Shown: positions 1 to 11,224 of the stretch, one piece after another
How positions within the stretch are numbered: position 1 is the first letter of the stretch
Layout of the letters: every line of letters starts with the position of its first letter
Virus record (IMG/VR): IMGVR_UViG_2541047682_000007
Source of the DNA: a virus
Taxonomy: Duplodnaviria; Heunggongvirae; Uroviricota; Caudoviricetes
Reading direction: 5' to 3' (one strand)
DNA: 11,224 bases
The notes under the pieces: model-generated
Databases searched by the model: none
Seen by the model: the letters and a program-made list of their open reading frames with translations, nothing else
Told to the model about the DNA's origin: nothing
Program-made: the position numbers and the translations under genes

Positions 1-97
1 AGTCTTGAGTCTTGAGTCTTGAGTCTTGAGTCTTGAGTCTTGAGTCTTGAGTCTTGAGTCTTGAGTCTTGAGTCTTGAGTCTTGAGTCTTGAGTCTT
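1..97 (-). repeat. Tandem heptanucleotide repeat array (AGTCTTG as written; 5'-AAGACTC-3' on the coding strand), 13 complete copies plus a 6-nt partial copy abutting the window edge
   Basis: Direct reading: perfect 7-bp periodicity from position 1 to 97, ending in ...gagtcttaacat. On the minus strand this reads ATG TTA (AAGACTC)n, encoding RLKTQDS heptads. The array runs into the window edge, so the true copy number is unknown. Confidence 0.95.
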
Positions 98-102
98 AAC
101 AT
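1..102 (-). CDS. neuO: 5' end of polysialic acid O-acetyltransferase NeuO (partial; gene continues beyond window start)
   Basis: ATG at 102..100 (minus) followed by TTA and the AAGACTC repeats. This matches my recollection of the neuO contingency locus of K1 prophage CUS-3 (heptanucleotide VNTR in the 5' coding region). Position immediately downstream of a P22-like endosialidase tailspike fits. Identity rests on the repeat signature only, since the gene body is outside the window. Confidence 0.7.
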   Translation of the reverse strand, partial: MLRLKTQDSRLKTQDSRLKTQDSRLKTQDSRLKT

Positions 103-159
103 ATTAGTATCCTACGTTATTTTACCACTAGTTACTTTTCTTGTCATTAAAAAGCATTT

Positions 160-190
160 AAATTTTTATATTTAATTTCGTTGACGTCAA
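160..190 (-). promoter_or_regulatory. Candidate sigma70-like promoter region for neuO (TTGACG at 190..185 on minus strand inside palindrome TTGACGTCAA; A/T-rich -10 candidates TATAAA/AAAAAT around 170..162)
   Basis: AT-rich intergenic region between the tailspike stop (256) and neuO start (102). Hexamers found by eye; spacing is not ideal (14-17 bp depending on the -10 chosen). Low confidence. Confidence 0.2.
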
Positions 191-255
191 TGTTTTTTGC
201 CAATGTACTTACTTCTTTATGTGATCAGTTCATATTTTTGACGCCAACGAAACAT

Positions 256-3201
256 TTAGTGCTTCCCTTCTATTAAGTCTAACCTAGCTTTTATTCTTTC
301 TATTTCTCTGCGCTGCCATGCTGCCTCGATATAGAATAAGAGATCAGGTCTGACCCCCCATCTAGATCCTGCTGGCGTTATTTCAACGCGCTCAATGATG
401 TCTTCCATTACCATCACTGGATTATCATCCTCATCAACAATGATGCTCCCGTCATTATCAGTCAGCGGCATTTCCCTTTGGCCAGTAATGACGTCATCAT
501 ATACTGCGGGATAATCGTCATAGCAAAGAAAGGCATAGCGGCATGTTGTGCTTTCTTCTTCCATGAGTCCGTGAGAAATAAGAACATCACGAAGTTGCTG
601 CGCGATTACACCATGATGTATCCTCGCCCCTTCTTCCCCCTTTATAGCGACAGCGTTCAGCCATTTATAAGCGATATACCTGACGTCACCCCAGGCATCC
701 AGCAATGTTTCGTCAGGAGAGACCGGCTCTGTCTTTAATGTTCCGTCACTGGTAACCACAGGATTGGAGCCAAGATAAACTATCGAGAACCTGTTTCCCG
801 GACCACCAAGAGCATTTACATTATCAAGATAAGGTTTAACATCTCCGTTCTCAAAAAGATGTTCGAGTGCGTTATATACCGCGCGACGTGGAGTACTGCT
901 TCTGGAACCATGCAACGTTATCATTGCACCATCTGCTGAAGACGTTGTTTCACCGCCGCTAACGATTAATCTCTGAGCGGTAACATCATCAGACGGTACT
1001 TTCTTCGCAATAATGGCGTAATTACCCTCAAGTTTGACTTCCGCGCGAACTTGTCCTGATGTACCTGCATGGACAGTCAGTGACTGGACGGCAACATCAT
1101 CTGTGAAATCAACGGGTACAGGAACCGTCCTCACGCCTGACGTCGACATAAAAGTAGGAAGCGTTCTGTTAGGAGTGGCTCCGTAGACAAAATCCCTTGA
1201 AACAAATTCTTCCTGTTTAATTTTCACCCTGAAACAATACAAATCAGCCGGGTGACCATCGTGAACATAAGGATATTTTCTGTTGTTATCCCCTATGCTC
1301 CATGGGTTTAGAAAGTCTTCCCCACCGAAAATGTAGTACAGCCAGTTGTCTTTGATACAAACTGAACCAACACCAACCGCAGAGTTAACTATTCCGCCCT
1401 GATAAATCTGATCAGTAACATTAACCCACTCTACATTATCCAGACTCCACTCATTGACGTTAACTCTGGTCATAAATGTTCTTGGATAGTTTCCTGCATA
1501 ACGGTTATCAGGTTCTCCTCCTTCCCACTCACCAAATGCGCGCTCACTGCCAAAAATAATCAGCTCATCGCCAACTTTGGCAAAAGGAAGGTTTGAGTGA
1601 TGAACATTATTTGGGAAGCGAAGAGAATTCCATGATGTACCTAAATCAGAGCTTCTGTGCAATGAACTACCGGGTTGAGTACTTAATGTCCCCCTGGTCG
1701 TCAGATACAGAATGCCATCATAATATTTTACACATGGCTCAGATGCATTCGCCTCATATTCTGCAGGTATGCGTCTGCGAACAAAGCTACCAGGAGAACC
1801 GAAAGCATCAGAGAAATAGAGTATCCCAAGCTCGCGTGGACCAATATCACCATTATGGTAGCCAACAGCAAAACTGTTATCGCTAATCGTCGCAAAACTG
1901 TGAATCTCAGTAACAGGAGTGCTTCCGTCAACAAAAGAAGGAATAGTTCCAAGACTGGTTTTTCTCCATGGTGACGAGTGAAATGATGTACCAAAACTCC
2001 AGTATCTACCCTCGTTATTCTGATCCACATCCTGGGTATTTTGCGTCGTAACTGTAAAAGTATTTTTATCAATAACAGTAGTCACCGTCATATTCCCGGT
2101 AACACCTGTAACACCAGAGTTTGAGAAGTTGACAAAATCACCAGCAAATAATCCGTGATCAGTAATGCGAATATAAGCGACTTGCTGATTTGCTGCTTTC
2201 GTTATACCACCATAAACGCGAAGGCTGCGACTCATTGGGCGATCCCACAACTCTGCAACCTGCAGTTTATTTCCGCTCACGGTCCGCGTCTCAATTACAG
2301 CAAAAAGGCGATTTCTGACAACCCCCATACTCATGCAGTGATAGTTAACTGTGGGATAGTTTTCATGTAAATCTGTAAGCCATTCCGGCGTTGTCCAGGT
2401 CTTCCCGTCATCTCCTGAGCGAACCCATGCAACATGGAGGTTATTTACACCATGGCGGTCTCCAGCCATAAAAGGCGCATAGATGACATTGTCATATACA
2501 AACGTTTTATCCTGCGTCCAGGCGTTGTACCACGGTGTATCTGTAATTTTAAATAACTCTCCCTGGATAAAATCTTCAGAAACATAAAAAAGAGGCTGAC
2601 CCGGTATTCTCTCAAATAAAAAACGAGCATTTTTAAATCGACTGACATCTGGAAGAGTTGATACTTTAAAAGTAAGCCCTCGCCCATCTATCTTTTCACC
2701 ACCTGTTGCAACAGAAAGTAATTCTGATAGAGCTGATGTATCATCATGAACACCATCACCAATAGCCCCCCAACCTCTTACATCATAACTGTCTCTCCAT
2801 CTTGCTATCTGAAGTTTTGGGTATTTATTCGCTCCATCTGGGTCTTCTAATTGCTGCCGTAGTTGATCAGGATCATACTTCAGCACATTCTGGAAATAGA
2901 ACTGCTGTACGCCATACGCATCGTACACAGCCATAGAATGGCCTTGCACAGTTACGAACTTGGCAATCCGTCCGTTATATACAGGGTAACCAGCAGCGTT
3001 AATGATGATTGGTTGCGAAACAGGAACGTGAGAGCCGTCTTCGTTCTCTACATAAACCTGAATCCGGTTTTCAGGATTTACCGGGTCAGTGTCAATTTTA
3101 CCGATATAAATTTTGCCATTGGCTACGGCTTTAAAAGAACGCGCCATAGTGAAGAGTTGCGAAGGCATCGATACAATCACATTGGCTGTAATGTCTGTCA
3201 T
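256..3201 (-). CDS. Tailspike protein: P22-type head-binding N-terminal domain fused to an endo-N-acetylneuraminidase (endosialidase) domain with a C-terminal intramolecular chaperone (S74-type) domain
   Basis: 981-aa ORF. N-terminus [13 protein letters not shown]...[21 protein letters not shown]...[15 protein letters not shown]...LKYDPDQ closely parallels the P22 gp9 head-binding domain as I remember it. Central region carries sialidase Asp-box motifs ([16 protein letters not shown]). The C-terminal ~150 aa resemble the auto-cleaving chaperone domain of K1-phage endosialidases. RBS GGAG 8-9 nt upstream of ATG at 3201. Confidence 0.9.
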
Positions 3202-3259
3202 TTAATTTGCTCCAGATGCAAAGAATCGCCGCAGCATGGCCACGGTGAATTTTGGGCAT

Positions 3260-3282
3260 AAAAAAACCCAGCCGAAGCTGGG
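3260..3282 (-). terminator. Rho-independent terminator between ant and the tailspike gene
   Basis: On the minus strand: stem CCCAGC, loop TTCG, stem GCTGGG, followed by TTTTTTT (plus-strand 3267-3282 cccagccgaagctggg preceded by an A-run). Confidence 0.6.
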
Positions 3283-3301
3283 TCGTTGCGTTGGTTATCT
3301 G

Positions 3302-4204
3302 TCAGTAATTATGTACTGAAGGAGGTAATTCTTTATTCTTAAGTCTCATCCATGCGGAAAGATTCGTTGGTCCGTCTGGCTCATTGATATCAACATCTCG
3401 TGTGTGATTGATTAAAACGTCTCTCGCCATATCGATAATACGGGAGAACTCATAACCGCAGTCATGACATCTGCCGGAATAGTTCGATTGAATTTGTTTT
3501 AGCGCCGGATACAGTTCGCGGAATAATGCCTGTGAGCGGTTGGCATAATCCCATAGCCATACAAGGCTGTTTGCTTCTTTTGCAGAAAGCTCGTTGGTTT
3601 TCTTCTCTTGTTTGCCGATGAACTCACCTTCAAGCACTACCCTGTGGATGTACTCTACTGCTTGTGGTATCTGAGATGCATCAAGCTCTTCAATACTTTC
3701 CACATTGAAACGCTGATGAATCATTGCATAAGCTTCTGGGTACATTAGATGCTTTTTGCTGACTAGCATATTTACAGCATCACGAAGCGGAGTCCTGTCA
3801 TCAACAGATGTTTTCTTCCGTGCATTTGCTGCCTCTCCCTTTGTCCAGTAGTCATGCAGCACAGTAAAGCATTCTTCCTGGTACTGAATCAGTTTATCGC
3901 GGATGTCAGCACGAACTTTCTCAGGGTTGATGCTGAACAGCCATCCATTTAACTTCTTCAAAGGAAGGCAGAGTAGCTTACGAAGCTTACCATCAGCGGC
4001 AACCATGTTCATATGAACACAGTTGAATTTGCTAATCTGCTTCATGAGTTTTGTTTGCTGCGTTGACCAGCTCATTCCGAGGTTTTCAACGATTGGCTTC
4101 ATCGCAACATATGCAACTCCGGCAGCCATGGCGGTGATAATTTGCTGACCGTTGAATGGCACGTAAGAGGTGTTCACTGCTTCTAAAATTGCTATACTAT
4201 TCAT
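3302..4204 (-). CDS. ant: Antirepressor Ant (P22 immI-type, 300 aa)
   Basis: ORF-track ORF 3302..4270 contains an internal ATG at 4204 preceded by GGAG with a 10-nt spacer. From that start the product is 300 aa, the length I recall for P22 Ant, beginning [21 protein letters not shown]. The longer 322-aa reading begins with GTG at 4270 and lacks a good RBS. Position between arc and the tailspike matches P22 immI. Confidence 0.8.
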
Positions 4205-4285
4205 GTTGGTTTTTCTCCACGGATTTACCGACAACCGAAGCCCTGACTGTTCCAGCAGTTGGGGCTTCACTGTTTTGATTTCTTT
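4205..4285 (+). ncRNA. Candidate Sar-like antisense RNA opposite the ant ribosome-binding site and start
   Basis: Plus-strand extended -10 element TGcTATACT (4190-4198) would put a start near 4205, directly opposite the ant start codon. Plus-strand hairpin GAAGCCC..ACTG-ttccag-CAGT..GGGCTTC (4237-4268) is followed by a T-rich tract ACTGTTTTGATTTCTTT (4269-4285). This is analogous to the P22 sar RNA. Inference only. Confidence 0.3.
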
Positions 4286-4436
4286 GCCGCATCAAGCATC
4301 ACTTCTGAAAACGTGCGCTTGCCACTGAATACTCTTTCTCTTCTCAATTTTTCGTTCGTGCCAAATGATTCGCCATGAACAAAATTTGGTCTTAAAATGG
4401 TAATCGCAATCTCTTTGACTACTGCATCCAAGCGAA

Positions 4437-4589
4437 TCACACCGTTACCCCCTCTCTCTTCAGGCTGTCTATCAGGCGCTTGATAACCTCTGAGTTAAAC
4501 GACCTGCACTCTTCCTTTGCCCTGCTACCGATAGCATCCTTTAACGACTGCGGCATCCTTACCAAAATCTTACTTATTTCTTTCTCCAT
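4437..4589 (-). CDS. arc: Arc repressor (ribbon-helix-helix, 50 aa)
   Basis: ATG at 4589 preceded by GGAGG with a 5-nt spacer. Product MEKEISKILVRMPQSLKDAIGSRAKEECRSFNSEVIKRLIDSLKREGVTV shows the P22 Arc pattern (MP-F/Q..., GRS-NSE). The longer track ORF begins with TTG. Divergent from mnt, upstream of ant. Confidence 0.8.
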   Translation of the reverse strand: MEKEISKILVRMPQSLKDAIGSRAKEECRSFNSEVIKRLIDSLKREGVTV

Positions 4590-4703
4590 GTTACCCTCCA
4601 CGCAAACAACTCTTTTCGAATACAAAAGATAGCAAAGTGAGTATATCTAGTCAAAATTTTTTTGCATACACTTTGCTATCAAATTGAATACCAAAGGTGT
4701 TAT
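4590..4703. promoter_or_regulatory. Divergent Pant/Pmnt control region containing a 13-bp perfect inverted repeat (aGATAGCAAAGTG 4627-4639 / CACTTTGCTATCt 4669-4681; 29-bp spacer)
   Basis: Intergenic region between divergently oriented arc and mnt. The inverted repeat was read directly. Minus-strand TTGACT (4654..4649) with TATCTT (4631..4626) 17 bp downstream is a plausible Pant. Exact hexamers are uncertain. Confidence 0.5.
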
Positions 4704-4952
4704 ATGGCAAAGGGTGTGTCAATTTCTCCAACTACGGTAAGAATCCCTGAATCTTTACGCGAGGCTCTTGCTGTCAGAGCATCAAAAAATGGTCGCTCTG
4801 TTAACTCCGAGATCGTCATGATTTTGCAAGCCGCGATTGATGAAGATAGGTCGCCAAAGTCAGTTGAGTCATTTGCTCAGCAAGAAGCTGATAAATTCAA
4901 AGAGGCGCTACTTGAGACGCTAAAGACCATGTATGCTAAGGATGAAAAATAA
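4704..4952 (+). CDS. mnt: Mnt repressor (ribbon-helix-helix, 82 aa)
   Basis: ATG at 4704 with AAGGTG 4 nt upstream. Product MAKGVSISPTTVRIPESLREALAVRASKNGRSVNSEI...ALLETLKTMYAKDEK parallels P22 Mnt (82-83 aa; ANGRSMNSE...TLKDLYKK). The track ORF is 5'-extended by an implausible upstream start. Confidence 0.85.
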   Translation: MAKGVSISPTTVRIPESLREALAVRASKNGRSVNSEIVMILQAAIDEDRSPKSVESFAQQEADKFKEALLETLKTMYAKDEK

Positions 4953-5488
4953 TGCTGCACACAATTCATTTCTTATGCCCTGTTAACACTGCCACTGTTG
5001 GGCAACTTCAGAACCACTGTCTCACCGCATTATCTCAAGGCGCAACTGAATTAAATATCCATATATCAAGTCAGGGAGGGGAAACTGCTGCTGGCTTTAC
5101 TGCGTATAACTTTCTTAAGTCACTCCCTGTTACCGTTAGAACTCACAACATAAGCAATGTTGAATCCATAGCTAATATCGTTTTCCTGGCTGGCTCAGAA
5201 CGTTTCGCAAACCCATTATCAAGATTCCTGTTACATCCTCTATTATGGTGCTTTGCCTCCCCAGCCGCCGACCATGCCAGATTGAGAGAGTACGGGAAAT
5301 GCCTCGATAACGATCTTGATCGCTTCGTTGAGACGTTCAATATCGACATCGGAACCCATATTAGGTGGGCATCCCTGATAGCAGACTCGACCATTTTGGA
5401 TGCTAACAAGGCTCTTGAGCATGGCATAATTAATTCCATAAAAACTGCAAGGCTGGCATCCAATCAGGCAAACTGGTGGGTTGTTTGA
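4952..5488 (+). CDS. ClpP-like (peptidase S14 / ClpP-crotonase fold) serine peptidase homolog, 178 aa, translationally coupled to mnt
   Basis: Start ATG overlaps the mnt stop (TAATG at 4950-4954). By-eye alignment to E. coli ClpP: ISSQGG vs INSPGG; NVESIANIVFLAG vs GQAASMGAFLLTAG (catalytic Ser aligned); RFANPLSRFLLHP vs RFCLPNSRVMIHQP (catalytic His aligned); LDNDLDRF vs ERDTERDRF (catalytic Asp aligned). Followed by a terminator hairpin. Confidence 0.7.
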   Translation: MLHTIHFLCPVNTATVGQLQNHCLTALSQGATELNIHISSQGGETAAGFTAYNFLKSLPVTVRTHNISNVESIANIVFLAGSERFANPLSRFLLHPLLWCFASPAADHARLREYGKCLDNDLDRFVETFNIDIGTHIRWASLIADSTILDANKALEHGIINSIKTARLASNQANWWVV

Positions 5489-5513
5489 TGGGTAAATCAT
5501 GATTACTCCTTAT

Positions 5514-5538
5514 AAAAAACCCACCTGACGGTGGGTTT
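5514..5538 (+). terminator. Hairpin terminator downstream of the ClpP-like gene (possibly bidirectional)
   Basis: aaaaaaCCCACC-tgac-GGTGGGttt. The GC stem is flanked by an A-run upstream and T's downstream, so on the minus strand it reads as stem plus TTTTTT. The plus-strand T-tract is short (3 T). Confidence 0.5.
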
Positions 5539-5767
5539 AGTCAAACATAGTGTTTCTAAAGTCTCTCGCATACCCTGCTAACACTCTCATTCTATTATGA
5601 TTGTTAGCAGACATGTGAGCTACAGGATGAAAAAGAGCAATCAATGAATACCTGTTCTCATCAAAAAGATTTTGTGCATAAACGAGAGCGGTATTTGAAG
5701 TGGTTTACTGAATTTGGCCACCTGAACAGAGGTGATATGCTCACCTCAGAACAACACAGGTGCCATA

Positions 5768-6915
<1,148 letters not shown>

Positions 6916-7112
6916 CTCGGTGGCCAGTTTTTGTTGACCACTTCAATGCAACAGTTCGCTATTGCAGGGGCGGCATCGGTTCGCCCTTTCAACCCGATTT
7001 TATCGGTACAGCATTCACGAAAAAACATTTTAACCGGAGCAGACTTTAAACAACCAAGAATGAAAAGCTTGCTCGAAAAGCTTTGGGATATTTTGAAACA
7101 ACAAGGCCGTCC

Positions 7113-7271
7113 ATGAGTTTTACGGATAACTGGTCAGACGAAGAATTCATTCGTCAGATAAAAGAATTAATCGGTAACGAAGGAGATATTCATGTCACTT
7201 GCAACCACAGTGAAGGAGAGCAAGTTACAGAGACGCATGTACACGCAGAAAGCTCTCTGGTATCGCCATAA
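7113..7271 (+). CDS. Hypothetical small protein (52 aa) in the early-left operon upstream of erf
   Basis: ATG at 7113 with AAGG about 7 nt upstream; acidic product MSFTDNWSDEEFIRQIKELIGNEGD.... Overlaps an alternative 56-codon ORF (7192..7362) in another frame, so both cannot be fully correct. Confidence 0.3.
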   Translation: MSFTDNWSDEEFIRQIKELIGNEGDIHVTCNHSEGEQVTETHVHAESSLVSP

Positions 7272-7362
7272 TGGTGACCGCGAAGGAATGCGGGTATGCC
7301 TTAATTTGTCCCGAGTCGAAGTATTAAATCAGCGTTATTTCCTTGGGCCGTGTCCATTCTGA
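7192..7362 (+). CDS. Hypothetical small basic protein (56 aa) immediately upstream of erf (position of arf/kil in P22)
   Basis: ATG at 7192 preceded by AGGAG with a 6-nt spacer. Product MSLATTVKESKLQRRMYTQKALWYRHNGDREGMRVCLNLSRVEVLNQRYFLGPCPF. Stop is 10 nt before the erf start. Below the ORF-track length cutoff, found by manual translation. Confidence 0.3.
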   Translation: MSLATTVKESKLQRRMYTQKALWYRHNGDREGMRVCLNLSRVEVLNQRYFLGPCPF

Positions 7363-7372
7363 GAGCAATCAT

Positions 7373-7978
7373 ATGAGCAAAGAATTTTACGCAAGACTGG
7401 CAGCTATTCAGGAGAATCTGAACGCGCCAAAGAATCAGTACAACTCATTCGGCAAATATAAATACAGAAGCTGCGAAGATATTCTTGAAGGCGTTAAGCC
7501 GTTACTGAACGGTCTGTTTTTATCAATCAGCGATGAAGTTGTGTTGATTGGTGATCGGTATTACGTGAAAGCCACGGCAACTATTACCGATGGCGAAAAC
7601 AGTCATACGGCAACCGCTCTTGCACGAGAGGAAGAAAGCAAGAAAGGAATGGATTCTGCACAAGTTACGGGAGCTACAAGCTCTTATGCACGCAAGTATT
7701 GCCTCAATGGTTTGTTCGGCATTGATGATGCGAAAGATGCAGATACAGACGAGCATAAACATCAGCAGAACGCAGCAGCAAAGCAATCAAAACCATCACT
7801 TACACCTGAACAGGTTCTAAAAGCATTCACTGACGCAGCAATGCAGAAAAACACCGTAGAAGAGCTTAAACAGGCGTTCGCCAAAGCGTGGAAGATGCTC
7901 GAAGGGACGCCGGAGCAGCACAAAGCGCAGGACGTTTACAACATCAGACGAGACGAATTAGAAGGGGCAACTGCTTAA
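7373..7978 (+). CDS. erf: Erf (essential recombination function) single-strand annealing recombinase
   Basis: Product from ATG 7373: MSKEFYARLAAIQENLNAPKNQYNSFGKYKYRSCEDILEGVKPLLNGLFLSISDEVVLIGDRYYVKATATITDGENSH... is near-identical in its N-terminal ~130 aa to my recollection of P22 Erf. The track ORF is extended upstream from a TTG. Confidence 0.9.
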   Translation: MSKEFYARLAAIQENLNAPKNQYNSFGKYKYRSCEDILEGVKPLLNGLFLSISDEVVLIGDRYYVKATATITDGENSHTATALAREEESKKGMDSAQVTGATSSYARKYCLNGLFGIDDAKDADTDEHKHQQNAAAKQSKPSLTPEQVLKAFTDAAMQKNTVEELKQAFAKAWKMLEGTPEQHKAQDVYNIRRDELEGATA

Positions 7979-8361
7979 TGGCACATTCGATTACAGTAAG
8001 ACTAAACAAACCCGCAAGAGAGTTTCAGGGCGGGGAAAATATCGGATTCAACATCCGTGCTGGCGTTCAGTATTACGATCGCCAGACAAAAAAGAAAGAA
8101 TGGACAAACTACAGCGCCGTTGTATTTGCCAAGCCGGGAGCGCAAGCGGATTACTATCGTAGCGTTCTGGTTGAAGGAGGCATTGTAGAAATTACCGGAG
8201 AAAACATCAGGGTTGATGTTTATCAGGGGCAAAATGGTCAATCAATCACTCTTGAATTACTGAATGCAAAGATTGGATTTGCAACTTCAGGAAACAGCCA
8301 ACAGCAGCAAAGTAGCAATCATCAAAATAATCCTGAATACGACGATTCCATCCCATTCTGA
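7978..8361 (+). CDS. ssb: Phage single-stranded DNA-binding protein (short SSB, 127 aa)
   Basis: ATG overlaps the erf stop (TAATG at 7976-7980). OB-fold-like core (KEWTNYSAVVFAKPGAQADYYRSVLVEGGIVEITGE, compare E. coli SSB [33 protein letters not shown]). Gln-rich linker and canonical acidic C-terminal tail ...PEYDDSIPF (E. coli SSB ends DFDDDIPF). Confidence 0.85.
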   Translation: MAHSITVRLNKPAREFQGGENIGFNIRAGVQYYDRQTKKKEWTNYSAVVFAKPGAQADYYRSVLVEGGIVEITGENIRVDVYQGQNGQSITLELLNAKIGFATSGNSQQQQSSNHQNNPEYDDSIPF

Positions 8362-8384
8362 TTTAGAAAAATAAGGATTTAATT

Positions 8385-8681
8385 ATGCCAGCGCCTTTGT
8401 ATGGTGCGGATGACCCGCGCCGCTGTTCCGGCAATTCCGTATCGGAGGTGCTGGATAAATTCAGAAAAAACTACGATCGAATAATGTCTCTACCGCAGGA
8501 AACGAAAGAGGAAAAGGAATTTCGCCACTGTATATGGCTTGCAGAGAAAGAAGAACGCGAGCGAATTTACCAGACATCAATCCGACCATTCCGCAAAGCC
8601 ACATATACCCACTTCCCTGAATATATCGACCCGCGCCTGCGTAATTACCGCTCACGCTATGGCGCTATCAGTAATGACTGA
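8385..8681 (+). CDS. Hypothetical protein (98 aa), Ea-region
   Basis: ATG at 8385 with AAGGA 7 nt upstream. Same strand and operon context as erf-ssb. No recognisable motif. Confidence 0.55.
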   Translation: MPAPLYGADDPRRCSGNSVSEVLDKFRKNYDRIMSLPQETKEEKEFRHCIWLAEKEERERIYQTSIRPFRKATYTHFPEYIDPRLRNYRSRYGAISND

Positions 8682-8775
8682 GGAATTTACCATGAGAGGA
8701 CTTGCTTAAGAGAAAGAGTTTCGGTTCTGTTAATGACAACAAATATCTGAATGCGATGTGGCGGAGTGGGAAGAA

Positions 8776-9294
8776 ATGAAACAAATGTCACTAATTGAGA
8801 TGGATGGTTTTCTGAAAGGTAAATGCATCCCAAGTGATTTAAAGGTTAACGAAACAAACGCTGAATACCTTGTCCGTAAGTTCGGTGAACTTGAATCAAA
8901 ACTGGAAACGGCGTTGCGGGAGTGTAGTTCTGCTGGAATCACGATTGATAACCTTGAGGCTAAATGCGCGAAGATGGCTGCTGAAAATACCTCACTTAAG
9001 CAATCTGAGAAGGAATTTAATGACTTTTGTCGTGAGGAGTTTAGCGAATGGGAAGATGATGTTACTGAAACCCCAGCCACCGATGCTTTTCTGGCTGAAG
9101 TGCGGGCGCAGGGGGTGGATGCTGCTATAGAAGCTGCAAAAAATCTGGTGGCCCAAGAATATGAGTATAAGGATTTCAAAGCGGCGCAGAGTGATTGCTG
9201 TATGCACCCTGGTTCAGACCTGGTAGGGAAGGTTGAAATGACTGAGTGGTTAGTTGACTTTGCTGCCCAGCTTCGCAAAGGAGGCAACCAGTGA
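8776..9294 (+). CDS. Ead/Ea22-like acidic protein (about 172 aa; start uncertain, GTG 8758 or ATG 8776)
   Basis: Long acidic ORF in the Ea region, with GGAG 9 nt upstream of ATG 8776. The family assignment is from general resemblance to lambdoid Ea22-type proteins and is tentative. Confidence 0.55.
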   Translation: MKQMSLIEMDGFLKGKCIPSDLKVNETNAEYLVRKFGELESKLETALRECSSAGITIDNLEAKCAKMAAENTSLKQSEKEFNDFCREEFSEWEDDVTETPATDAFLAEVRAQGVDAAIEAAKNLVAQEYEYKDFKAAQSDCCMHPGSDLVGKVEMTEWLVDFAAQLRKGGNQ

Positions 9295-9590
9295 CTGTAT
9301 GTCTTATTGATAAACGTCGACGTGGGCAACAAATACCATCTGTTGAAATGCCGAATCACACATGGTTTTGCGTACTTGATATCGATGGTATGGATACGTT
9401 GGTTGACACTCGTCATTACTGCGATACCGCAACAGCTACTCCGGCGAAAGCAAAGAAAATGGCTGCTCTGATAGAAAACTGGACTCCACCTGATGGTTGG
9501 TGCAATGGGAATGATCGAGATTGGCACGAAAAAATGAAGGGCTATATCTGCGATTTTTTACGTAAATGCAACGGCTTCAGGGGGATGTGA
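9291..9590 (+). CDS. Hypothetical Cys-containing protein (99 aa), GTG start overlapping upstream stop (GTGA)
   Basis: Strong RBS AAAGGAGG 6 nt upstream of GTG 9291. Start overlaps the stop of the preceding ORF, suggesting translational coupling. Confidence 0.5.
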   Translation: MTVCLIDKRRRGQQIPSVEMPNHTWFCVLDIDGMDTLVDTRHYCDTATATPAKAKKMAALIENWTPPDGWCNGNDRDWHEKMKGYICDFLRKCNGFRGM

Positions 9591-9591
9591 T

Positions 9592-10164
9592 ATGACCAAA
9601 ATTAACTATCAGGCACTGCGTGAGGCGGCAGAACGTGCAATTCCGGCAATGGAACGCCTGTTAATGTTGCCAGTTGATGATGATTTGTTAAGTGAACAGG
9701 AACTTAAGGATTACGGTGTGGATATTGATGCGCTCAACGCCTTCAAATTTCTGACCGGACCAGAAACCGTGCTGGCGCTGCTGGATGAACGGGAAAGAAA
9801 CCAGCAATACATCAAACGCCGCGACCAGGAGAACGAGGAAATTGCGCTAACGGTAGGGAAGCTGCGCGTTGAGCTGGAAGCTGCAGAGAAGCGCATTGCA
9901 GAACTGGAAGCCGAACCTGTAAGCCAAACTTACAAGTTGAACGAGCTGTCGGGCAACTATCCGGTAACTCCGGATGGTTGGATAAGCTGTAGTGAGCGAA
10001 TGCCCGCTCAAGATGATTGGATTTTAATTTATTCAAAGCACGGCGAGTATATGGCAGGACAGGTACAAGGGGAATACGTGGAGTTGAGCGACGGCACTTT
10101 ATCGTGGTTAGGGAACGCCTTGTACTGGATGCCTCTACCGGAACCGCCGCAGGAGGTTAATTGA
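9592..10164 (+). CDS. DUF551-type / Ea22-like prophage protein (190 aa) with central coiled-coil
   Basis: N-terminal MTKINYQALREAAERA... and C-terminal TPDGWISCSERMPAQDDWILIY...LYWMPLPEPP resemble the DUF551 C-terminal domain common in lambdoid early-left regions. Coiled-coil segment KLRVELEAAEKRIAELEAE. ATG 2 nt after the upstream stop. Confidence 0.7.
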   Translation: MTKINYQALREAAERAIPAMERLLMLPVDDDLLSEQELKDYGVDIDALNAFKFLTGPETVLALLDERERNQQYIKRRDQENEEIALTVGKLRVELEAAEKRIAELEAEPVSQTYKLNELSGNYPVTPDGWISCSERMPAQDDWILIYSKHGEYMAGQVQGEYVELSDGTLSWLGNALYWMPLPEPPQEVN

Positions 10165-10358
10165 TGGTCTCCTTCGCGAAATATACGATTATTGACTGGA
10201 TAGCATTCATTCAGGTTTTGCTCATCTGGTTTTATATGGCTTACAGGAGTGGACAGTGGATTGTCAGTGTAGCCTGTAGCAATGGATGGCGTTGGTGGAA
10301 CCGAAAGAATAAAAAAAGCGCTGGCCTTGGCTTCGTTTTACGAAGCATTCAATCTTAA
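10164..10358 (+). CDS. Small hydrophobic (predicted membrane) protein, 64 aa
   Basis: ATG at 10164 overlaps the upstream stop (TGATG) and is preceded by AGGAGG with a 7-nt spacer. Hydrophobic helix IIDWIAFIQVLLIWFYMAY followed by a basic W/R/K-rich tail. Confidence 0.45.
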   Translation: MVSFAKYTIIDWIAFIQVLLIWFYMAYRSGQWIVSVACSNGWRWWNRKNKKSAGLGFVLRSIQS

Positions 10359-10441
10359 CAGTCTTCAGCCTGGTTCTGTCGTTGTAGTCACCACTCAAAG
10401 CGGCATGACGATACAAATTCACAAGCCAAAGGAGGAAGGTC

Positions 10442-10726
10442 GTGGCTAACCTGCAACTTGCCGTTAAAGGTGAATACTTCGATGCCATGATTCGCGGAGA
10501 GAAAACGGAAGAGTATCGCCTGTGTAATGACTACTGGAATAAGCGAATTATGTTCCGCGAGTATGACCGCCTGATTATCACAAAGGGATATCCGAAGCGC
10601 GACGATTCCAGCCGCAGAATTGACGTCCCGTATGACGGATATGAAATCAAGACAATCACACATCCGCACTTCGGCGATAAACCGGTAAAGGTGTTCGCTA
10701 TAAAGGTGAATATCGACAATGAATGA
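10442..10726 (+). CDS. ASCH/PUA-like domain protein (94 aa), GTG start
   Basis: GTG at 10442 preceded by AAGGAGGAAGG. Motif ...GEKTEEYR... resembles the ASCH-domain signature (GxKTxExR) seen in small phage proteins. Assignment is tentative. Confidence 0.55.
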   Translation: MANLQLAVKGEYFDAMIRGEKTEEYRLCNDYWNKRIMFREYDRLIITKGYPKRDDSSRRIDVPYDGYEIKTITHPHFGDKPVKVFAIKVNIDNE

Positions 10727-10798
10727 TAATCCTCGCACTCGCGGGGATTTCTTTTATCTGAACTCGCTACGGCGGGTTTTGTTTTATGGAGATGATAA

Positions 10799-10966
10799 AT
10801 GCACTTCCGAGTCACAGGTGAATGGAATGGAGAGCCATTCAACAGAGTTATCGAAGCAGAGAACATCAACGACTGCTATGACCACTGGATGCTGTGGGCG
10901 CAGATAGCACATGCAGACGTAACTAATATTCGAATTGAAGAACTGAAAGAACACCAAGCCGCCTGA
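10799..10966 (+). CDS. Hypothetical small protein (55 aa)
   Basis: ATG at 10799 with GGAG 7 nt upstream. Product MHFRVTGEWNGEPFNRVIEAENINDCYDHWMLWAQIAHADVTNIRIEELKEHQAA. Stop codon lies in the loop of a terminator hairpin. Below the ORF-track cutoff. Preferred over the overlapping track ORF 10719..10907. Confidence 0.4.
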   Translation: MHFRVTGEWNGEPFNRVIEAENINDCYDHWMLWAQIAHADVTNIRIEELKEHQAA

Positions 10967-10978
10967 TGGCGGTTTTTT
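10956..10978 (+). terminator. Rho-independent terminator at the end of the Ea gene cluster
   Basis: CCGCC-tgat-GGCGG stem-loop (10959-10972) followed by TTTTTTATT. Confidence 0.6.
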
Positions 10979-11023
10979 ATTGCCTGATTTGCAGGTTCGA
11001 TTCCCTATTCGGAGATAGCACTC

Positions 11024-11224
11024 ATGCAACACGAACTACAACCTGATTCACTGGTTGATTTGAAATTCATCATGGCCGATACTGGCTTCGGTAAAACCTT
11101 CATCTATGACCGGATTAAGTCCGGCGACCTGCCAAAAGCCAAAGTTATCCACGGGCGAGCAAGATGGTTATATCGTGACCATTGTGAATTCAAAAATAAG
11201 CTCTTAAGCCGCGCCAATGGGTAA
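11024..11224 (+). CDS. xis: Excisionase / AlpA-family DNA-binding protein (Xis), 66 aa
   Basis: GGAG 9 nt upstream of ATG 11024. Product carries an AlpA/Xis-like pattern (FIMADTGFGKTFIYDRIKSGDLPKAKVIHGRARWLYRD..., compare the typical ...TGLSRSTIYRLIKEGKFPKP...GRSVRW...). Lies at the distal end of the early-left operon, where xis precedes int in P22-like prophages. Confidence 0.65.
   Translation: MQHELQPDSLVDLKFIMADTGFGKTFIYDRIKSGDLPKAKVIHGRARWLYRDHCEFKNKLLSRANG

Follow-up and report, generated by a model that had tools for sequence, protein, structure and literature searches.

The open reading frame at 256..3201 on the minus strand of the analysed DNA (the window, that is the whole stretch of 11,224 nucleotides) is very probably the siaK1 endosialidase tailspike gene of a CUS-3-like, P22-like (Lederbergvirus) Escherichia coli K1 prophage, preserved intact inside a remnant of that prophage. 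The gene is the CUS-3 tailspike itself, which is well described already, and the locus is a known kind of decayed prophage; the biology of siaK1 and the element that carries neuO have been in the literature since 2006-2007. What our analysis adds is small: a breakpoint that, in comparison with CUS-3, appears to coincide exactly with the module junction, and one private variant of IS-driven decay. The gene shows how the capsule of neonatal-meningitis E. coli, which is made of polysialic acid, became accessible to a temperate P22-like phage; it is also a marker of the mobile element carrying neuO.

An intact siaK1-type tailspike gene

The six-frame list of open reading frames and the translation give an ATG start, a single terminal stop and a product of 981 amino acids (109.5 kDa), identical to the RefSeq protein WP_000129907.1, and a GGAG Shine-Dalgarno sequence lies 5' of the ATG. 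The preliminary description of this DNA had noted that the frame appears intact from start to stop, which our translation bears out, and had left its strand unstated.

Over its full length, the gene is 99.0% identical at the nucleotide level to siaK1 of CUS-3 (CP000711, 2526..5471), which that record annotates as 'endosialidase tailspike protein', citing direct-assay evidence for an endo-alpha-sialidase (PMID 16689790). There are 29 nucleotide and six amino acid differences between the two, all of which fall within gene nucleotides 27-361 (window 2841..3175, minus strand). The rest of the gene (window 256..2840, gene nucleotides 362-2946) is 100% identical to CUS-3, with 0 differences in 2,585 nucleotides. 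The left part of the window (1..5695) is also 100% identical to strain PE144, and the coding sequence annotated there is WP_000129907.1. The calculated mass of the tailspike matches the published figure for the CUS-3 enzyme, which is listed in a review as 109 kDa (PMC5380687).

Domain organization of the tailspike

Six Pfam domains, counted above the curated cut-offs, are found in the protein in the following order: Head_binding; End_N_terminal; End_beta_propel with an End_beta_barrel insert; End_tail_spike; and Peptidase_S74 (all on the minus strand of the window). The Head_binding domain (PF09008; aa 1-113, window 2863..3201) covers profile positions 1-113 of 113 with an E-value of 3.8e-64 and ends in the motif NVLKYDPDQ. 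A linker (aa 114-145, window 2767..2862), which is the zone where the modules join, leads from there to the endosialidase N-terminal extension (End_N_terminal, PF12218; aa 146-212, window 2566..2766; E = 2.9e-37). The catalytic domain, a GH58-type six-bladed beta-propeller (End_beta_propel, PF12217; aa 213-662, window 1216..2565; E = 1.2e-233), matches the full profile (1-367) and carries an inserted beta-barrel (End_beta_barrel, PF12195; aa 324-406, window 1984..2232; E = 1.2e-46). The propeller is followed by the stalk, a triple beta-helix (End_tail_spike, PF12219; aa 663-817, window 751..1215; E = 6.7e-78), and directly after the stalk by the C-terminal intramolecular chaperone (Peptidase S74, PF13884; aa 818-981, window 259..750; 18.7 kDa), whose Pfam match (aa 818-878, E = 2.8e-10) has a score of 40.8 bits, the cut-off being 22. 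The four models PF12218, PF12217, PF12195 and PF12219 are present at full length and in the order of the endosialidase architecture, and the Pfam scores are far beyond chance. The proposal in the preliminary description of a sialidase-type module with Asp-boxes and a C-terminal intramolecular chaperone is thereby strongly supported, both by profiles and by the solved structures considered below. For the centre of the protein, two other identities, a BNR sialidase of the general type and a different depolymerase, were considered and rejected: BNR_2 scores 17.4 bits, below its cut-off of 31.4, whereas the endosialidase models score 127-775 bits.

The endosialidase body can be compared residue by residue with endoNF of coliphage K1F. 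Amino acids 145-817 match the sequences of the endoNF structures 1v0e and 3gvl with an E-value of 0, and identity to endoNF is 65.9% over 665 aligned residues of the catalytic part. The pattern S-x-D-x-G-x-x-[WFY] occurs only twice in the protein, as SGDDGKTW (aa 262-269, window 2395..2418, minus strand) and SSDLGTSW (aa 517-524, window 1630..1653, minus strand); both Asp-boxes lie in the propeller and align to SGDDGQTW and SRDIGQTW of endoNF, respectively. Residue mapping places E488 (1738..1740), R503 (1693..1695) and R554 (1540..1542, all minus strand) opposite Glu581, Arg596 and Arg647, which we take to be the active site in the residue numbering of endoNF, and H250 opposite H350. The Arg-to-Ala variant chain 3gvj differs opposite R554, which fits this numbering. 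Two of the three polysialic acid-site residues that were checked in the endoNF stalk are kept (R837 as R744 and S848 as S755), while the third, Q853, is replaced by M760, and there is a 7-residue insertion relative to endoNF at aa ~424-430. Both the M760 change and the insertion are found in CUS-3 too, whose gene does not differ from this one there.

The C-terminal region (aa 698-979) matches the endoNF stalk and chaperone construct 3gw6 with an E-value of 1.2e-94, and the chaperone domain of the GA-1 neck appendage (3gud) matches as well (E = 2.9e-10). In the alignment to 3gw6, Ser818 (748..750, minus strand) stands opposite the Ala of this non-cleavable S911A construct and Lys823 (733..735, minus strand) opposite the Lys five residues on (K916); the mature crystallised endoNF chains end opposite Thr817. 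The two residues presumably form the self-cleavage dyad that corresponds to Ser911/Lys916 of endoNF and to MEROPS S74. Alignment to the CUS-3 and K1F tailspikes, which had been suggested earlier as a means of locating the autoproteolysis serine, places it at Ser818, paired with Lys823. Cleavage at this site is predicted to yield a mature chain of 90.8 kDa (1-817) and a chaperone of 18.7 kDa (818-981).

By close homology, the tailspike would fold as a homotrimer, in which aa 1-113 would form the head-binding domain, shaped like a dome, through which the spike is plugged into a P22-type tail hub, and aa 146-817 an endoNF-type endo-alpha-2,8-sialidase whose inserted beta-barrel binds polysialic acid. 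The endosialidase part may bind and depolymerise the polysialic acid K1 capsule and allow the phage to reach the outer membrane. Amino acids 818-981 would nucleate trimerisation of the stalk and then be released by Ser818/Lys823 autoproteolysis, leaving the 90.8 kDa mature subunit. We infer from these likenesses that this allele has alpha-2,8 polysialic acid endosialidase activity, and that it undergoes trimerisation and autoproteolytic release of the chaperone.

Module exchange at the head-binding junction

Judged from its sequence, the gene is the product of a module exchange at the conserved ...NVLKYDPDQ junction. Similarity to the Sf6 and P22 tailspikes ends at aa 113-118, at this motif, and similarity to endoNF begins at aa 145. 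On the near side of the junction, aa 1-118 match the Sf6 gp14 tailspike (7sg7, E = 1.5e-66) and aa 1-~117 match P22 gp9 (E about 1e-50); within aa 1-113, identity is 103/113 to Sf6 and 84/113 to P22. By these counts, the head-binding module resembles that of Sf6 more than that of P22. The preliminary description had likened the first ~110 amino acids to the head-binding domain of P22 gp9, which is correct as to the domain (PF09008), but the nearer relative is Sf6.

The comparison with CUS-3 narrows the place of exchange. Because the differences are confined to gene nucleotides 27-361 and 256..2840 is identical, a recombination breakpoint at the module junction is indicated. Relative to the reference CUS-3, to go by the alignment, the exchange is limited to the head-binding module and to the immI region next to it.

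About a thousand tailspikes of E. coli prophages share the head-binding module, at 85-96% nucleotide identity. The tailspike gene is present over at least 80% of its length in 181 of the 5,426 complete E. coli genomes, and in about 985 further E. coli genomes the match is limited to the first ~300-370 nucleotides of the gene. Similarity to dozens of PHROG tailspike families is likewise limited to aa 1-~120. The same endosialidase body and chaperone occur in vB_EcoP_ZX5, a temperate, epsilon15-like Uetakevirus (MW722083, QTH80017.1).

The CUS-3 chimera already serves in the literature as the standard illustration of how tailspikes exchange modules (PMC5380687, citing Stummeyer et al. 2006). The horizontal domain swap put forward in the preliminary description is therefore supported as such, but not as a fresh example, the gene being the tailspike of that published case. 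The further statement that the swap retargets a P22-like virion is apt for the history of the gene, but not for the locus as it now stands, where the virion genes have been lost in the window.

Genomic neighbourhood and the missing virion genes

The window begins with the 5' end of neuO, the polysialate O-acetyltransferase gene (1..102, minus strand; ATG at 102..100), in which at least 13 AAGACTC 'poly-psi' repeats follow the ATG and run past the window edge. Such poly-psi repeats of neuO have been described (PMC8653822). On the other side of the tailspike gene, between its start and ant, a consensus terminator scan finds an intrinsic terminator (3265..3284, minus strand) made of an 8-bp GC-rich stem followed by T7. 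Beyond it lies a P22-type immI module (3302..4952, mixed strands), which was assigned from Pfam, Rfam and the RefSeq annotation of the identical PE144 sequence and comprises ant (3302..4204, minus strand), the sar antisense RNA (4205..4271, plus strand; Rfam RF00262, 83.9 bits), a small ORF (4267..4440, minus strand), arc (4437..4589, minus strand) and an mnt-like Arc-family gene (4704..4952, plus strand). A ClpP-like gene comes after the immI module. A CUS-3-like prophage at argW is laid out, between argW and dsdC, as int, neuO (poly-psi), siaK1 and immI on the left and erf, the ea genes and torI on the right. In all, the gene content of the window runs from the neuO repeats through siaK1 and immI to the genes from erf through torI; int, argW and dsdC lie beyond the window.

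An ISEc52-like element of the IS3 family (5695..6946, plus strand), with orfA/orfB and 28-nt imperfect inverted repeats, follows. Its left end cuts a yafO-like toxin gene, of which a remnant is left (5537..5695, minus strand), and its right end is abutted by a cIII-like ORF (6931..7116); the element is flanked by ATT and ATG, so that there is no target-site duplication. The early-left block (kil/erf/abc2/ea genes; 7113..11004, plus strand) is 99.9% identical to CUS-3 36317..40207, which spans kil/erf to the annotated attR core.

The IS element appears to join the truncated yafO-like gene beyond immI to cIII/kil/erf, and with the IS alone between the immI/yafO' side and cIII/erf, some 29 kb of the CUS-3 sequence is absent. 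None of CUS-3 ~7000-36300 is present in the window when the two are compared, and the genes that are absent relative to CUS-3 are those for the ejection proteins, head completion, coat, scaffold, portal, terminase, lysis, Q, nin, replication and cI/cro/N (immC). The genes that a functional phage needs for virion, lysis, replication and immC are not all present in the window, and the locus falls into the class of CUS-3-like remnants. Because the virion genes are absent, a virion cannot be made from the locus as assembled; the prophage here appears to be a remnant, apparently without any virion genes.

The strong terminator upstream of the tailspike gene, together with the loss of the late promoter and of the gene for the antiterminator Q, suggests that the gene is likely to be poorly expressed. 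Most likely the tailspike gene is carried as a passenger, with weak expression, next to neuO; the latter, which encodes the capsule O-acetyltransferase and is phase-variable, is the part of the element from which the host is known to benefit. The expectation of low expression draws on P22 biology and on the consensus terminator scan.

Related prophages and alternative readings

In closed genomes, identical or nearly identical sequence sits between argW and dsdC, and the prophages there are found in several states. In AHB22 this IS is simply inserted in ant, and the virion genes are kept. CEA212U contains the right junction of the window (IS-cIII) in a remnant of ~11 kb that has lost more on the left, and PE144 has an IS-anchored deletion with different junctions on both sides. 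The tailspike gene itself is reduced to a 207-nt fragment in FDAARGOS_1302 and is hit by IS insertions in FY26 and NCTC11151. The exact arrangement of the window was not found in the complete genomes, where the best matches cover 80-82% and are of the CEA212U type with another left junction. Among the complete E. coli genomes, the right junction is present in two and the left junction (yafO-IS) in 0 of 5,426, and since the left junction is absent from them the arrangement seems to be private to its source. A simple nested deletion from CEA212U or PE144 was rejected, as CEA212U has less to the left of the IS and the IS position in PE144 differs on both sides; either independent events or recombination inside IS copies therefore has to be assumed. 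CUS-3-like prophages at argW-dsdC are described as prone to decay, with neuO as near as 8 kb to dsdC (2022; PMC9659370).

The count of 0/5,426 for the left junction also means that the case for the deletion depends on a single assembly being contiguous through a repeated IS. It would suit a different reading, in which the source carries a full-length and possibly inducible CUS-3-like prophage and the 29-kb gap arose when two copies of the same IS, located in yafO and upstream of cIII, were collapsed into one during assembly. ISEc52-like copies are indeed abundant, since junction queries that contain the IS match as many as 24 places in a genome, and IS-bearing full-length relatives such as AHB22 exist. 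We nevertheless regard a collapse as unlikely. The right junction occurs in a closed genome, CEA212U, as part of a genuine remnant; several independent IS-anchored deletions are present in closed genomes, in line with the published decay; and the lack of a target-site duplication fits a deletion. Short-read assemblers, moreover, usually break at repeated IS copies and do not bridge them.

If the locus is a deleted remnant, as we prefer to read it, the intact tailspike gene might be thought to have been retained for a benefit, either as a soluble capsule-trimming enzyme that remodels the host capsule together with neuO, or as a reservoir of K1-specific spikes for superinfecting P22-like phages, in trans or by recombination through the conserved and widely shared 5' module. 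WP_000129907.1 is intact and identical in CEA212U, PE144 and AHB22 despite their different deletions; the head-binding module is intact and of the kind common among E. coli prophage tailspikes; and P22 tailspikes can be added in vitro to particles that lack spikes. Both roles seem very improbable to us, however, because the gene is lost or interrupted in other remnants (FDAARGOS_1302, FY26 and NCTC11151), which argues against strong selection. The absence of any difference from CUS-3 over 2,585 nt leaves the sequences too similar for dN/dS, and intactness may simply reflect recent decay. The upstream terminator and the missing late promoter and Q antiterminator also speak against a working role, and a weakly expressed passenger in a decaying prophage is the reading that we favour.

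Comparison with known tailspikes

The tailspikes of P22 (gp9), Sf6 (gp14) and HK620 have the head-binding domain in common with this protein, including the same YDPDQ end, but their receptor-binding bodies are without similarity to it past aa ~118-126. These tailspikes are O-antigen endoglycosidases that fold as a right-handed beta-helix and have no C-terminal chaperone to release.

EndoNF of K1F (PDB 1V0E, 3GVL and 3GW6; GH58 and Peptidase S74) has the same fold modules as this protein from aa 145 onwards to the C-terminus, with the active-site residues, the two Asp-boxes and the Ser/Lys dyad for cleavage all conserved. This protein is unlike EndoNF in the insertion at aa ~424-430 and in the Met at the position equivalent to Q853. 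The tail fibre of vB_EcoP_ZX5 shares the endosialidase body and the chaperone, with 95% amino acid identity over 134-980 and 99.5% DNA identity over gene nucleotides 522-2914, but it has an unrelated N-terminal anchor of ~190 amino acids without Head_binding, and its last ~10 residues differ.

SiaK1 of CUS-3 (CP000711, ABQ88383.1; CAJ29292.1; Stummeyer et al. 2006, PMID 16689790) is of equal length, 981 amino acids, and its gene has the same flanks as here, with the neuO poly-psi repeats on one side and ant and the terminator on the other. The immI region of the window is of the phiv205-1 type and not of the CUS-3 type, and the six amino acid differences from CUS-3 SiaK1 all lie in aa 43-121, within the head-binding module or where the linker begins.

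Gene content and prophage boundaries

A sar antisense RNA (window 4205..4271, plus strand) overlaps the 5' end of ant. It matches Rfam RF00262 with 83.9 bits, where the gathering score is 43, and confirms that the P22-type immI regulatory module is complete (mnt-like, arc, sar and ant). Within the immI region, the mnt-like gene is immediately followed by a gene for a ClpP-family protease of 178 aa (window 4952..5488, plus strand); RefSeq labels it ATP-dependent Clp protease proteolytic subunit, and phiv205-1 labels it 'head maturation protease'. This gene is distant from all head-morphogenesis genes, is adjoined by a yafO-type toxin remnant, and probably represents a moron or accessory gene.

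An ISEc52-like element of the IS3 family (5695..6946, plus strand; flanks 5537..5695 and 6931..7116) links the truncated yafO-like toxin gene with a cIII-like gene, and this joining implies that approximately 29 kb of the prophage has been lost. The element is not surrounded by a target-site duplication. Its right junction occurs in two complete E. coli genomes, CEA212U and AR_0058, among the 5,426 searched; the left junction was found in none of these 5,426 genomes.

On the right-hand side, the sequence that the CUS-3 GenBank record annotates as the 'attR core' (TTGCAGGTTCGATTCC; window 10989..11004) is located upstream of the torI-like excisionase gene (window 11024..11224). The 3' end of argW is duplicated over 17 nt in the closed genome of CEA212U, and this duplicate lies some 75 nt downstream of torI (the right-end observation is at positions 9782 and 21072 of locus L002). 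The prophage probably extends far enough to the right to include torI, and the CUS-3 record may therefore be about 300 bp too short.

At its opposite edge, the window begins within neuO's phase-variable repeat of the heptanucleotide AAGACTC (window 1..102, minus strand). At least 13 full copies and one partial copy are present 3' of ATGTT; since the repeat continues past the edge, this count is a lower bound for the total copy number, on which the on/off phase depends. Related loci that were examined carry between 7 and 60 copies.

Exchange of tailspike modules

Residues 113-153 of the tailspike (window ~2743..2865, minus strand), which comprise the linker and the beginning of the endosialidase N-terminal extension, match residues 213-253 of PDB 9vvr (E 2e-11), an otherwise unrelated 843-aa tail spike structure. 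The two proteins also have the carboxy-terminal chaperone region in common, and the match suggests that the linker itself is a reusable junction element.

The CUS-3-type endosialidase body is also found in Escherichia phage vB_EcoP_ZX5 (MW722083; 2542..5661 of its locus, L006), a temperate, epsilon15-like Uetakevirus, with 99.5% DNA identity, and the N-terminal anchor in front of it differs. This phage is the third type of virion to serve as a chassis for this K1-specific module, and the transfer involving it looks very recent.
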